DNA from: Bacteroidales bacterium
GTDB lineage: Bacteria; Bacteroidota; Bacteroidia; Bacteroidales; UBA7960
Direction of reading: 5' to 3'
Assembly (NCBI GenBank): GCA_012521995.1
Contig: JAAYLH010000045.1
Location: 4,138 to 68,137 of the forward strand
DNA: 64,000 nucleotides
This document shows positions 11,501-23,754 of the stretch, one piece after another. How positions within the stretch are numbered: the stretch's first letter is position 1; every line of letters begins with the position of its first letter. The notes beneath the pieces are model-generated. The model was not told the origin of the DNA. It was given only the letters and a program-made list of their open reading frames with translations, and searched no databases. A program made the position numbers and the translations under genes.

Positions 11501-11554
11501 TTGAAAGGATTTTAGGATTTGTTATGAATGAATAGCCCGGGGGAAATAAAAAAT

Positions 11555-11649
11555 GGGCAAGTATGATATCGCACCGCTACGACCGCCTACCCTTGCTACC
11601 TTCCGATCCTGGGGGAGTTCAGCGGGAGCTGGTCGTACCAAACTTACCC
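11555..11649 (-). ncRNA. ffs: Signal recognition particle RNA (small bacterial type)
   Basis: The minus strand has closing stem gggtaagt/acttgccc and core CAGGATCGGAAGGTAGC (GGAA tetraloop, Ffh-binding domain IV pattern). TACTTTTG lies 4 nt upstream (11654-11661). Confidence 0.88.
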
Positions 11650-11833
11650 GCTGCAAAAGTACTAAAATTATTGGTGCTGCCAAAAAAAAATCTTTCTCCA
11701 TAAAGGCCTTCTTCCTCCTGCCGATAATTCCCCTGACACGTGATAAAGGAAAATTCAATTCCAATGCCGGCATACTGAAATTATTGAAAAAATAAATGTA
11801 AGTTTGTTTCCTCTTTATAAACCAAAATGTATC

Positions 11834-16612: not shown

Positions 16613-16698
16613 TTATCACCCCCCCATTTTTTATCAACTTTTTGTTGAAAAAGTTATTTTTTTTATCACCTCCCCCTTTATTTTTTACATTACATTTG
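16613..16698 (+). promoter_or_regulatory. glnN promoter region: two TTATCACCYCCCC boxes 50 bp apart, a central 8-bp inverted repeat, and the -7 element TACATTTG
   Basis: Boxes at 16613-16629 and 16663-16679; aacttttt-gttg-aaaaagtt at 16636-16655; TACATTTG at 16691-16698. Confidence 0.55.
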
Positions 16699-20293: not shown

Positions 20294-21076
20294 ATGAAGC
20301 ATATCCTGATAACAGGAGGCAGTTCAGGCATCGGGCTTGCCATTGCCAAGAAGCTAATGGAAGAAGGGAACCGGAAGGTCATCTCACTGAGCCGCAGCCA
20401 GGAAAAGATTGAGCGGGCCCTGTTTACGCACCCGGAAATGGAAGGGGAAGTCGACTTTATAACGGGCGACGTCAGCAAGGCGGGCGACTGTCAAAAGGTT
20501 GCCGGCTACCTGAAGGATCGGTACGGAAAACTCGATGGCCTTGTAAACAACGCAGGCATGCTTACAGCCGGGGGTATTCATGACATTGATTATGAGCTAT
20601 GGAAAGCAAACCTGGACATCAACCTCAATGCCCCCTATCTGCTGACCCAGATGATGCTTCCCTTGCTGAAGGCTTCGGGAAATGCGTCGGTGGTAAACAT
20701 CTCGTCCGTAGCATCACGTATCCCCGGGCGCAGCATAGCTTATTCGGTATCGAAGGCAGGCCTCGATATGATCACGGAGTTCCTGGCCGGTGAATTGGGC
20801 CCATATCAAATAAGGGTCAATGCCGTGAACCCCGGCCTTGTGGAGACGCCCCTGCATCTTGACAGCAAAGTCGTTGATGACGAAAGCATGTACCGCGAGA
20901 TGCTGGCGAAGTCGGCAGGCAAATATCCAATCGGACGCATTGGAAAACCTGAAGATATTGCCCAGATGGTTTGCTTTCTCCTTTCTGAAAAGGCATCGTG
21001 GGTTACCGGATCAATTATTCGTGTTGACGGCGGAAGTAGCGTTTTTAACGAAATTTTAAAAAGGAAAAACCGGTAA
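20294..21076 (+). CDS. Short-chain dehydrogenase/reductase (FabG-like)
   Basis: TGGSSGIG, NNAG, YSVSK (YxxxK), VNAVNPG, GSIIRVDGG. Confidence 0.9.
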   Translation: MKHILITGGSSGIGLAIAKKLMEEGNRKVISLSRSQEKIERALFTHPEMEGEVDFITGDVSKAGDCQKVAGYLKDRYGKLDGLVNNAGMLTAGGIHDIDYELWKANLDINLNAPYLLTQMMLPLLKASGNASVVNISSVASRIPGRSIAYSVSKAGLDMITEFLAGELGPYQIRVNAVNPGLVETPLHLDSKVVDDESMYREMLAKSAGKYPIGRIGKPEDIAQMVCFLLSEKASWVTGSIIRVDGGSSVFNEILKRKNR

Positions 21077-21325
21077 AACCGGTCATTTCTTTGCAATTAC
21101 GTCATTCCTAAATAATGGACAAAAAAGTTCAGGGAAAAAAACCTAACCTCTTTATTCCTAATACAAATCATTTTTTTTTCGGAAAAATGTGAATGTTTAT
21201 ATTGTGGTAAATACTTAGATTAATTTTAGTAAATTAACGAATTGATAGGTTGAGCATGTTGGGTTACCTTTGGTTTGTTAACTCTTCAGGAGGTTTTGAG
21301 TTTTTGAAATAATGAATTGAATTAT

Positions 21326-21504
21326 AAGCGACCCGGGCGGAACCTCATCAGTAGCAATCCTTTGGCTTGTTGCTGTCAAAATTGACCCGGGGGTTATTAA
21401 CATTCAACTTGTCGGACAAACTTTGAATTAGTAGTTTTTCCGGGCAGTTTTGATCTGAAAGGGGAGGTATCAGAGTTAGCATGGGATCTTGCCTTGGGTC
21501 GCTT
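21326..21504 (+). ncRNA. Candidate 6S-like rod-shaped ncRNA (~180 nt)
   Basis: Hand folding: closing stem aagcgacccgggcgg / cttgccttgggtcgctt; central loosely paired region; long apical stem gtcaaaattgacccgggg / ttccgggcagttttgat. G-U pairs favour the + strand. TACCTTTG at 21265-21272 upstream and a terminator downstream. Confidence 0.65.
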
Positions 21505-21507
21505 TCT

Positions 21508-21546
21508 AAAAAAAAAGACCACCATGTCCGGGTGGTCTTTTTTTTT
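21508..21546. terminator. Bidirectional intrinsic terminator
   Basis: A9-gaccacc-atgtccg-ggtggtc-T9. Confidence 0.85.
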
Positions 21547-21560
21547 ATTTTCTTAAGTTC

Positions 21561-21755
21561 TCAAGTAAGTGTTTGGATCTGGCGCCCCTGCTCATAGCAG
21601 GAGATCAGCCAGTCGAGCGAAGGGATATTGATACTGGTTGCGGAAAGCAAGACCCTGAATATTCCCCCTTCCTTTCGGACCAGCCTCACCTGGTACTCAC
21701 CAGGCTTCCTGAGGCTTACCATCATATTGTATTTTCTGGAGGCAGATTTAGGCAT
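21561..21755 (-). CDS. Small hypothetical protein (64 aa)
   Basis: TAATTTTG on the minus strand at 21772-21779, 16 nt before the ATG; the stop lies just before the bidirectional terminator. Confidence 0.45.
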   Translation of the reverse strand: MPKSASRKYNMMVSLRKPGEYQVRLVRKEGGIFRVLLSATSINIPSLDWLISCYEQGRQIQTLT

Positions 21756-21891
21756 GGCTGAGATTCTGCCACAAAATTAAGCCCTGAGCAGCCCTCTGCA
21801 CAAGGGGGAAATCACCTGTTTTTCCGGGGGAAAACACCTGGAAAGAAGGGCTCCGAGGGTCTGCTGAGCAAAAATCCGCCGCGAAGTAAGC

Positions 21892-22281
21892 CTAAATCAC
21901 TTCGTTCAGGGCCTGGGAGGTAAGAGGTTTGTTGAGGAAACGTACAACAAAAGGATTCTCGAGCGCCCTGCGATGGTCGTCGGCATCAATGGAAGAAGAA
22001 AGCATCGCAATCTTGCAGCGCTTGTGGATGGATTTGTCCAGGTGGGCAAAAGCATCCAGGAAGCCGAAGCCATCCATATCAGGCATGCGGATATCAAGGA
22101 AAATCAGATCGGGCAAGGCCTCGGGTTCCCGGTTGAAGGTTTCAACGAGGAAATCAAGGGCCGCCCGGGCACTTTTCTTGATTACGACCTGAGCGGCAAA
22201 ACCATTCTTTTCAATGATCCGCCGGTTGATCATATTGTCGATATCGCTGTCATCAATAAGGAGGAGGTAGTTTACAGCCAT
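21892..22281 (-). CDS. Stand-alone response regulator receiver (CheY-like)
   Basis: LLIDDS, PDLIFLDIRMP, MLSSS, FLNKPL. Confidence 0.9.
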   Translation of the reverse strand: MAVNYLLLIDDSDIDNMINRRIIEKNGFAAQVVIKKSARAALDFLVETFNREPEALPDLIFLDIRMPDMDGFGFLDAFAHLDKSIHKRCKIAMLSSSIDADDHRRALENPFVVRFLNKPLTSQALNEVI

Positions 22282-22284
22282 ATT

Positions 22285-23754
22285 TCAAAGGGATTGATAT
22301 TGGTTAGGCAGCGTAATAGTGAAGGCACTCCCCTTCCCTTCTTCCGATTCCACCCGTATGGTGCCGTTAAGTTTTTCAACAATTTCCCTGACGATATACA
22401 GCCCGATACCGCTTCCGGTGCTTTGTTCATAGCCCCTGAAGAACATCTCAAAGATCCTTGGAAGGTGCTTGGCTGGGATGCCTATTCCATTGTCCTTCAC
22501 CCGGATCAGCACCTGCTTGGCGGTAGTTTGGATCATCACATCCACAAAAGATTGTGCTGCGTCAGGATTGTAAAACCTCAGGCTGTTCGACAAGAGGTTG
22601 TTCAGGATGATCTCAACCCTTCGCTTGTCGGATAAGAACAGTGCATCGCCCTGGACATTGAGCCTGATGTCAATCATTTCAAATCCGGGGATGTATTTGA
22701 GGTTATTGATTGTTTTTTCGAGCAGGAAATTAAAATCGACGGGCGATAATTTCACGTCAAAGCGTGCATTGCGCGAATAATCGATAATATCATGAATGAT
22801 CTGGTCGAGTTTTTGAATGCTCTCCTTCATCAGGTCCACATACATCACATGTTCGACCGTATTGGTTTCCAACTCCAAAAGGTTTATCAGGCCAAGGACA
22901 GACATCAGGGGAGCGCGAAGTTCGTGCGAGGTGCTGTACACAAAATTGTCGAGTTCAGCATTGGTCTTGCGCAACTCCATATTTTTCTGGGTCAGGATCT
23001 TTTCGGCCTTCTTGGTACCGGAGATATCCTGGATATTCAGGAACAGGAAGTTTTGTTTTCCCAGTTCAATTTTGGAGGCAAAGAATGCCAGGTCCTTCAT
23101 TTCATCACCGTCAATAAAGAACTGGCAATGAAACAGGCTTTCTCCGCATTTGATGGCTTCTTTACATTTTTCGCGCATCAGAGCTGCCTCTCCAGGGTGC
23201 AGCTCAACCAGTGACATGCCTTTAAGGGCAGGGGGTTCATCCTTTCCATAGAGCTCAGCAGCGGCCTTATTGGCATCAATAATGATCAGGTCACAGGGGT
23301 TCACCAGCAATTGCACCACGGGGGCTTTGTGAAACAAGATCTTATACTTCTCCATTTCGCCCAGGGCAGATACCTTTTTACGGTTCTGGATCAGGCTTGC
23401 GGCCAGGGCCCTTAACTGCGGGGCATCAACGGGCAGAAACACCGGGAAGCATTTTACCCTGAAGGCTTCAGAAGCGCACAAGGCAGCCTGCTCAGGAGTC
23501 ACCAGCACCAGGAAGTAGGGCAAAGTCAGGGCTTCCTCAACGGAGAAAGCTTCATTTACTTTTTTGGAAAAGTAGTCATAGCCGGTAATAACCAGGTCTA
23601 TTTCAGGCATATCGGGCCTACCATGGAGCTTTTTAAGAAGCTTGCCATGTTTATCGTGGCTGATGAAATACTCCTGTTCAAGGGTTCTAAGCATTTCGAG
23701 CAAGCGATCATCGCTGCTGATCAGATAAAGATGCTTTTTCCCGAAGTGGCTCAA
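22285..23754 (-). CDS. PAS-domain sensor histidine kinase with an N-terminal pseudo-receiver
   Basis: H-box SHELRAPL, N-box LNNLLSNS, DNGIGI, FEMFFRG, GSGIGL, GKGSAF. Confidence 0.9.
   Translation of the reverse strand: MSHFGKKHLYLISSDDRLLEMLRTLEQEYFISHDKHGKLLKKLHGRPDMPEIDLVITGYDYFSKKVNEAFSVEEALTLPYFLVLVTPEQAALCASEAFRVKCFPVFLPVDAPQLRALAASLIQNRKKVSALGEMEKYKILFHKAPVVQLLVNPCDLIIIDANKAAAELYGKDEPPALKGMSLVELHPGEAALMREKCKEAIKCGESLFHCQFFIDGDEMKDLAFFASKIELGKQNFLFLNIQDISGTKKAEKILTQKNMELRKTNAELDNFVYSTSHELRAPLMSVLGLINLLELETNTVEHVMYVDLMKESIQKLDQIIHDIIDYSRNARFDVKLSPVDFNFLLEKTINNLKYIPGFEMIDIRLNVQGDALFLSDKRRVEIILNNLLSNSLRFYNPDAAQSFVDVMIQTTAKQVLIRVKDNGIGIPAKHLPRIFEMFFRGYEQSTGSGIGLYIVREIVEKLNGTIRVESEEGKGSAFTITLPNQYQSL

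Follow-up and report, generated by a model that had tools for sequence, protein, structure and literature searches.

We describe here a small RNA (sRNA) gene found in a 64,000-nucleotide stretch of the genome of a Bacteroidales bacterium (assembly GCA_012521995.1, contig JAAYLH010000045.1). The whole stretch is referred to as the window, and positions given without a contig name are those of the window. As judged from genome comparison, the locus is a genuine, previously unannotated non-coding RNA gene, and its product represents a new sRNA family that is absent from Rfam and restricted to one Bacteroidales family. The RNA is probably a trans-acting base-pairing regulator that controls a hybrid sensor kinase; we favor this reading because an invariant hairpin loop of the RNA matches, and co-evolves with, the leader of the kinase mRNA. 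Regulators of this type, trans-acting antisense sRNAs in signalling circuits, are already known, and it is the family that is new. The genome containing the window (G000) is a metagenome-assembled genome (MAG) of 3.26 Mb that is 97.8% complete, and its genus is referred to as g1.

The conserved RNA occupies positions 21326-21505 of the + strand (180 nt) and folds into a four-way junction. The closing stem, P1, is formed by a 5' strand at 21326-21344, which pairs with the 3' strand at 21484-21504, and the junction carries three hairpins: the variable P2 (21349-21375), which is 27 nt long here and 60-110 nt long in other genera; the long P3 (21376-21453), which contains internal loops; and P4 (21454-21474; UCUGA-AAGGGGAGGUA-UCAGA), in which a 5-bp stem presents an 11-nt Shine-Dalgarno (SD)-like loop at 21459-21469. 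The tip of P3 contains the proposed seed, ACAUUCAA-CUUGUCGGAC (21400-21417), whose core, UUGUCGGA, lies at 21409-21416. All 21 homologues folded independently into the four-way junction. Changes on both sides of the pair were found in 15 of the 16 pairs of P1 (helices 1-2; for example, GCGAC/GUCGC, GCAGC/GCUGC and GCAAC/GUUGC) and in 25 of the 28 pairs of P3 (helix 5), and all seven pairs of P2 (helix 3) covaried; covariation was seen in every helix that varies. The apical core of P3 was invariant in all members, and P4 was invariant in every member except for one loop base, which was either A or U (UCUGA-A(A/U)GGGGAGGUA-UCAGA). In a MAFFT alignment of eight members of ~180 nt, 20 of 70 pairs were changed on both sides, and 88% of the cells were paired versus 35-52% when the pairing partners were slid. 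A model-based alignment of 19 sequences revealed compensatory changes in 50 of 62 pairs and 90% paired cells (34-49% in the slid controls); this alignment was fitted to the structure and its figures lean that way, but the MAFFT result agrees with it. The compensatory base changes on which an earlier, sequence-only reading of this stretch had made its RNA depend are therefore present among the homologues. That reading placed the RNA at 21265-21546 and described it as a ~180-nt molecule with a closing stem, a central bubble and a long apical stem. A real RNA gene does lie within the interval and the size was right, with the conserved RNA proper confined to 21326-21505, but the homologues and their covariation replace the bubble with a four-way junction that includes P2 and P4.

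We assign the RNA to the + strand because of its many G-U pairs, because R1, the covariance model of this RNA, scores 195 bits on the + strand and 30 bits on the - strand, and because the conserved promoter is on that side. The 282-nt stretch at 21265-21546 folded at -96.6 kcal/mol on the + strand (z = -5.1 against shuffled sequences) and at -75.1 kcal/mol on the - strand. The locus lies in ~480 bp between an SDR gene (20294-21076) and a conserved minus-strand open reading frame (ORF) of 64 aa (21561-21755). No ORF of at least 40 aa was present on the + strand of this gap, and no conserved ORF was found in its ~480 bp. The -7 box, TACCTTTG (21265-21272, +), is of the Bacteroidetes TAnnTTTG type and lies 20 nt past a -33 element, TTG (21242-21244, +), which is the last TTG of a longer upstream element, TGTGGTAAAT-N12-TTTAGTAAAT-TAACGAATTG (21203-21244, +), conserved in ~26 loci of four genera. 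The layout that recurs in the ~26 loci is yTGyGGnAA-N3-C-N-TA-N5-AATTTTAGTAAATnAACGAATTG, followed by 19-20 nt, an equivalently placed TAnnTTTG and a leader of 45-70 nt. The TTG and the TAnnTTTG box match the Bacteroidetes -33/-7 promoter consensus described in PMC7366714. The upstream part in the window, TGTGGTAAAT-N12-TTTAGTAAAT, consists of two apparent half-sites about two helical turns apart, and the element is probably an activator site. With up to 3 mismatches allowed, no other copy of the element was found in the G000 genome except for two poor partial matches, and no convincing second copy of the two-half-site pattern or of the direct repeat of the element was found there. One partial look-alike, CCCTAGTATCAATTTTAGGAAATATACGTATTG, lies at G000:C39:7290-7360, ~100 nt upstream of a gene for a predicted signal-peptide protein, and is probably a chance match.

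A poorly conserved leader of ~53 nt (21273-21325, +) separates the -7 box from the conserved RNA, and BLAST conservation begins only at ~21324. An intrinsic terminator with 17 pairs follows at 21507-21547 (+); it is bidirectional, with an A-run, a 7-bp GC-containing core and a T-run, and probably also serves the convergent small ORF at 21561-21755. At the sequence level, the locus is an independent transcription unit, with conserved -33 and -7 boxes and a terminator and without an ORF. The sequence-only reading had proposed an unannotated, stand-alone sRNA gene on the + strand in an ORF-free gap of ~480 bp, with its own promoter, its own terminator and a 5' extension of ~50 nt, and each of these points was confirmed by the strand scores, the gap between the SDR end at 21076 and the next conserved ORF, which ends at 21561 (-), the conserved promoter, the terminator, the leader and the fold. 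In genus g9, the sRNA leader additionally contained two conserved blocks, GTTCTTTAAAGATTTGA and ATATCGACATA (loci L039-L049 and L054-L073), and most g9 loci had a conserved terminator hairpin, GGATTTC...GAAATCC-ATGTTTTTGG, 60-80 nt past the P1 3' strand. The g9 transcript may extend, at both its 5' and its 3' end, into functional segments that g1 lacks.

R1 was run on 77 genomes of the family and detected one copy per genome in 22 of them, which represented four genera. Scores were 70-205 bits in three genera and 29-41 bits in the fourth, which has the motifs. The RNA was absent from seven of the 11 genera of the family and also from two 100%-complete genomes of g1 (G005 and G008). Degenerate pattern scans of 185,579 GTDB species genomes revealed 29 loci, all in Bacteroidales-type MAGs, many of which came from soda-lake sediment, with digester and soil samples among the other sources, and the loosest pattern, P4 alone, added only four unrelated chance matches. 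Together with the genome of the window and G001, these 29 loci give ~31 species-level members, none of which is outside the lineage. A gathering-threshold Rfam scan of the window and a scan of the locus at E <= 10 returned only terminator look-alikes at this position (Thr/Phe leaders, RNAI and similar), which covered only the terminator hairpin at 21507-21547. The sole real RNA detected in the whole window by the gathering scan was the Bacteroidales small SRP RNA (RF04183, 89 bits) at 11551-11656 (-), which confirms the taxonomic placement. A new RNA class had been listed as one option in the sequence-only reading, which was right to allow for it.

A scan of the whole G000 genome for sequences complementary to the invariant P3 tip returned a single intergenic exact 10-mer match in 3.26 Mb, at C59:27541-27562 (-). 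It lies in the 5' leader of a gene on another contig (G000:C59:24758-27523, -) that encodes a 921-aa hybrid kinase with the architecture PAS-PAS-HisKA-HATPase-REC-HPt. In the predicted duplex, the leader sequence GUCCGACAAG-CGAA-UUGAAUGU pairs with ACAUUCAA-CUUGUCGGAC of the sRNA and forms helices of 10 bp (CUUGUCGGAC with GUCCGACAAG) and 8 bp around a 4-nt bulge (-25.5 kcal/mol). The layout of the kinase leader was conserved and comprised a -33/-7 promoter, a short 5' hairpin, the site, an A/U-rich stretch and a conserved GTG start. The site was located 20-28 nt past the kinase -7 box, just 3' of the 5'-terminal hairpin, and its distance to the GTG was 35-38 nt in g1, g7 and g8 and 62-72 nt in g9. 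R1 found nothing on C59, and a P4-like hairpin inside the kinase coding region is on the other strand; we rejected a paralogue of the RNA on this contig and regard the site as a candidate target. We also observed a 13-nt identity, TCCGACAAGCGAA, between the C59 leader site and the coding region of the kinase beside the sRNA (window 22620-22632, -; N-box region), which is probably recent or fortuitous because it occurs only in G000 and its closest relative, G001.

Pairing between the P3 tip and the kinase leader was kept in 16 of the 17 genome pairs examined, and 15 of these pairs, from four genera, had an ungapped helix of 10-15 bp. The sixteenth, in G007, retained a 9-bp helix by means of a U-G wobble. 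The predicted duplexes were formed by ACUUGUCGGACAA of the sRNA and UUGUCCGACAAGU of the mRNA in g7 (13 bp, about -27 kcal/mol), by UUGUCGGACAAAC and GUUUGUCCGACAA in g8 (13 bp, -28.9 kcal/mol), and by (A)GUGUUGUCGGAU(A) and (U)AUCCGACAAC(A/G)C(U) in g9 (12-15 bp, -20 to -25 kcal/mol). These energies refer to local helices only, as RNAduplex runs of whole RNA versus whole leader gave unrealistic global duplexes. In every case, the match was antisense relative to both transcripts. The bases that flank the invariant 8-mer switched on both partners between genera, from C/G to U/A on one side and from C/G to G/C on the other: in g1 and g7, C...C in the RNA faces G...G in the mRNA, whereas in g9, G...U in the RNA faces A...C in the mRNA. 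Within g9, the genome G082 had AUG in the RNA and CAU in the leader, where the other genomes had GUG and CAC. The seed is accordingly conserved, and its changes are compensated in the target, although the independent events are few, roughly 3-5. Homologues of the kinase were found in all 16 RNA-positive relatives tested, whereas the 18 RNA-negative genomes yielded one weak match of 30% identity that lacked the leader motif (Fisher p about 1e-8 to 5e-10, not corrected for phylogeny).

The kinase beside the sRNA co-occurs with the RNA too, and the gene order at the locus is SDR, RNA, and then, convergent with the RNA, the small ORF, a response regulator and a kinase. The wider neighbors are ordinary chromosomal genes: glutamine synthetase III, DUF3078 and the SDR gene precede the RNA, and the small ORF, a CheY-like response regulator, a PAS kinase, a PAPS reductase and an MBL hydrolase lie on its other side. 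In all genera that have the RNA, an MDR alcohol dehydrogenase gene and/or an SDR gene is located upstream on the same strand, and the RNA faces two-component genes in every case; a NarL/LuxR-type regulator and long PAS kinases are among those of g7-g9. Where a genus lacks the RNA, the SDR and PAPS reductase genes converge directly on each other. The RNA-negative genomes of g1 lack the SDR gene and the neighboring kinase, which argues that the RNA and the signalling genes are gained or lost as a block. No same-strand gene follows the RNA, as the terminator is located directly 3' of it and the genes beyond are encoded on the other strand, and a riboswitch or cis leader was excluded on this basis. 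The 64-aa ORF (21561-21755, -), which converges with the sRNA on the common bidirectional terminator, had no Pfam match. It was found by tblastn at the equivalent position in g1 and g7 (39-62% identity) and, as far as its conservation indicates, encodes a small conserved protein whose gene is linked to those of the RNA and of the response-regulator/kinase operon.

Across genomes, the RNA is present or absent together with the adjacent two-component genes and the target kinase, and all of these probably constitute one signalling module in which the RNA would be a feedback arm. In the mechanism we propose, the RNA would be transcribed from the + strand by a sigma-ABfr-type promoter whose upstream element is bound by an activator, and transcription would end at the intrinsic terminator. 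P1 and P2 of the ~180-nt mature core would serve as a scaffold that displays the two invariant hairpin tips. The P3 tip, CUUGUCGGAC, would pair with the kinase leader site in vivo and set the translation and/or the stability of the mRNA. In g1, repression is favored because the duplex covers -38 to -17, near the A-rich initiation region, which takes the place of an SD sequence in Bacteroidetes. In g9, the RNA could act by remodelling structure, and activation is possible, because the start codon lies in a conserved hairpin: the start region of the g9 kinase, GUGAAAAGAUU, was paired with AAUCUUUUC ~30 nt downstream in every genome examined (loci L074-L090), which suggests that translation of the kinase is intrinsically restrained.

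The P4 loop, AAGGGGAGGUA, resembles a strong SD sequence and may provide a second contact: we tentatively propose that GGGGAGGU touches a C-rich site within ~250 nt of the start of the kinase coding region and forms a two-point clamp around the initiation region. A perfect 10-nt complement of the loop, ACCUCCCCUU, is present at about +140 of the G000 kinase mRNA, and a better complement than in any control window from elsewhere in the gene was found within the initial 250 nt of the coding region in 10 of the 15 genomes. The complement motif is in different reading frames in G000 and G001, which points to selection on nucleotides. On this evidence, a functional second site in the kinase mRNA is possible, although we consider it doubtful. 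Two C-rich boxes, CACCCCCCCATTTTTT and CACCTCCCCCTTTATTTTTT, were also observed upstream of glutamine synthetase III (window 16613-16698), and similar boxes precede this gene in related genomes. One of them resembles the P4-loop complement, but the orientation that pairing would require lacks conservation, and the boxes fall within the promoter; we rejected them as partners of P4. A genome-wide search for further targets of either loop was too noisy to interpret.

Several observations weigh against base pairing with the kinase leader as the function of the RNA. The closest kinase homologue of G002, which is RNA-positive, has no recognizable site, and the co-occurrence counts are phylogenetically non-independent. 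In g1, part of the seed is taken up by the apical stem of P3, and the seed core lies within a DNA palindrome, TTGTC-N-GACAA, which would allow a shared operator. The 62-72 nt that separate the target site from the start codon in g9 are too many for simple occlusion of the ribosome. The transcription start, the 5' end and the g9 3' end were deduced from sequence. The invariance of the P4 loop is also largely unaccounted for: the positions of its complements vary between lineages (+55, +90, +130-140, +161 and +212), and a comparably good match to the start of the neighboring response regulator (-16.4 kcal/mol), which is not conserved in orthologues, arises by chance.

The invariance of P4 is one reason to consider that the RNA acts mainly by binding a protein, as a scaffold or decoy with two GGA-containing loops, or the ribosome, as an SD mimic at the 16S 3' end, and that the kinase match is secondary or partial. 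Both the loop and the stem of P4 are invariant in all 29 GTDB pattern genomes, in the genome of the window and in G001, which exceeds what a seed needs, and no conserved mRNA partner has been proven for the loop. The anti-SD sequence of Bacteroidia contains CCUCC, and up to nine pairs between the P4 loop and the 16S 3' tail that contains it are possible by eye. The elaborate four-way junction is also closer to the RNAs of ribonucleoproteins than to typical Bacteroides sRNAs, which have been described as largely unstructured (PMC7366714). However, the locus has no RNA-binding protein gene as a constant neighbor, the MAG lacks the 16S 3' end, and the co-varying complementarity between the P3 loop and the kinase leader would be left unexplained. 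CsrA is absent: the 97.8%-complete genome gave no PF02599 match, although the controls were detected, and with only two GGA-containing loops a sponge of the CsrB/RsmZ type was rejected. We regard a mainly protein- or ribosome-binding RNA as unlikely. A related and considerably more speculative idea combines the two loops, such that P4 acts as an SD sequence in trans: once anchored to the kinase leader by P3, the RNA would offer the SD to the 30S subunit; in the converse version, it would titrate the anti-SD. In the first version, ribosomes would be recruited to an SD-less, GTG-initiated and structurally occluded mRNA in a phylum in which the anti-SD is normally sequestered and SD pairing is rare. 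We consider this a long shot; if true, either variant would be an sRNA mode of action that has not been described so far. It is similarly improbable that one transcription factor, for example a response regulator of the module, binds the common sequence (TTGTC-N-GACAA plus flanks) as a DNA operator in both the sRNA gene and the kinase gene, with the RNA complementarity as a by-product. The core is an 11-bp palindrome in g1, g7 and g8, the kinase site is near the promoter, 20-28 nt past the -7 box, where a repressor could act, and two-component genes are linked to the locus. In g9, however, the sequence GUGUUGUCGGAUA is not palindromic, yet the copies are exact reverse complements in the transcript sense. 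In addition, the site is ~85 nt inside the transcribed sRNA, at the tip of the covariation-supported P3 hairpin, and from one species to another the match changes in length and slides in register to one side or the other, a behavior typical of duplexes but not of fixed operators.

The gene neighborhood bears on a further explanation, in which the RNA is a cis element, either derived from the 3' untranslated region of the SDR or alcohol dehydrogenase gene or acting as an antisense or terminator element for the convergent operon of the small ORF and the response regulator. The constant position directly downstream of a same-strand oxidoreductase gene and the bidirectional terminator shared with the convergent genes are what such an element would predict, but the SDR gene has its own terminator-like hairpin (21069-21083), a conserved promoter separates the upstream gene from the RNA, the upstream gene varies (SDR or MDR dehydrogenase) where the RNA does not, and SDR orthologues occur in other genera without the RNA. 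We find this explanation highly improbable. Least probable of all is the proposal that headed the sequence-only reading, namely that the RNA is the 6S RNA of this lineage or a second paralogue; such an RNA would sequester the RNA polymerase holoenzyme. Like the 6S families (RF00013, 6S-Flavo RF01685 and Bacteroidales-1 RF01693), the RNA is ~180 nt long, has a long terminal closing stem and is encoded by a stand-alone gene with its own promoter and terminator, and 6S RNAs diverge so fast that many are missed by Rfam models. In contrast to these families, it matches no 6S model, has no central bubble, is patchily distributed and is found in another genomic context. Comparison with the Rfam 6S and 6S-Flavo models, which that reading had put forward as a check, and with Bacteroidales-1 gave no match in window 21000-21900 at E <= 10, and RF00013 had no match over the cut-off in the whole genome (best, 16.5 bits, not at this locus). 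Where a 6S RNA would have its open bubble, both sides are taken up by the stable, covarying hairpins P2 and P4. Whereas 6S RNA should be nearly universal and lie near zapA, rny or ygfA, this RNA is present in 22 of 77 family genomes by the model and in only ~31 of the species searched by pattern, is absent from complete genomes of the same genus, and has none of these genes beside it. A better candidate exists elsewhere in the genome. The same reading had suggested that the zapA-rny locus be inspected for another 6S, and the zapA-rny gap of contig C123 does hold a structured RNA (locus L003, 1468-1672, -; 205 nt). This RNA is rod-like (fold z = -5.2), its long terminal stem doubles as a terminator, and it matches the 6S-Flavo model with 34 bits, the best match to that model in the genome, and Bacteroidales-1 ("6S-Bacteroidales suggested") with 20 bits, both below the cut-off. 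The B. thetaiotaomicron control genome likewise gave a below-cut-off match to 6S-Flavo, and in that species 6S RNA and pRNAs have been seen experimentally (PMC7366714). The zapA-rny RNA is likely the true 6S RNA of this genome, and a plausible mis-annotation is corrected in that the 6S candidate of the lineage is placed at zapA-rny rather than at the locus described here.

A trans-acting base-pairing sRNA would place this RNA beside several known systems. sRNAs form feedback arms of two-component and phosphorelay circuits, such as Qrr with LuxO/LuxU in Vibrio and OmrA/B with OmpR-EnvZ in E. coli. As in those circuits, the sRNA gene of the window is linked to two-component genes whose products probably control it, and the sRNA would pair with the mRNA of a pathway component and is co-inherited with the module; Qrr and OmrA/B, however, are Hfq-dependent and have short, single-stranded seeds, whereas the window RNA has no known chaperone. 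The presentation of the recognition sequence in a hairpin loop, with a possible two-loop contact to one mRNA, resembles the loop-presented antisense RNAs, that is, the kissing loops of CopA/CopT and RNAI/RNAII and the two-loop pairing of OxyS with fhlA. These are mostly cis-encoded on plasmids or enterobacterial, whereas the proposed target here is in trans, on another contig. sRNAs that pair with the 5' regions of mRNAs are also known in Bacteroides, for example GibS of B. thetaiotaomicron (PMC7366714). GibS and the window RNA share an intergenic gene, a Bacteroidetes-type promoter, an intrinsic terminator and a conserved seed against the 5' region of a target, in a phylum without Hfq- or CsrA-style systems and with little SD pairing. 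There is no sequence or model similarity between the two: GibS has little structure and exposes a long, single-stranded seed at its 5' end, in contrast to the four-way junction and hairpin-tip seed found here, and it targets metabolic enzymes, whereas the proposed target of the window RNA is a signalling kinase and the RNA is known from genomes alone.

Regulatory RNAs of Bacteroidota are poorly known beyond a few gut Bacteroides, and almost nothing is known of them in uncultured environmental Bacteroidales. The invariant SD-like loop is notable in a phylum that largely dispenses with SD-led initiation. The family described here brings, from genomes alone, a well-supported new fold, a candidate target backed by co-variation, and a testable model in which an RNA would provide the feedback arm of a phosphorelay.

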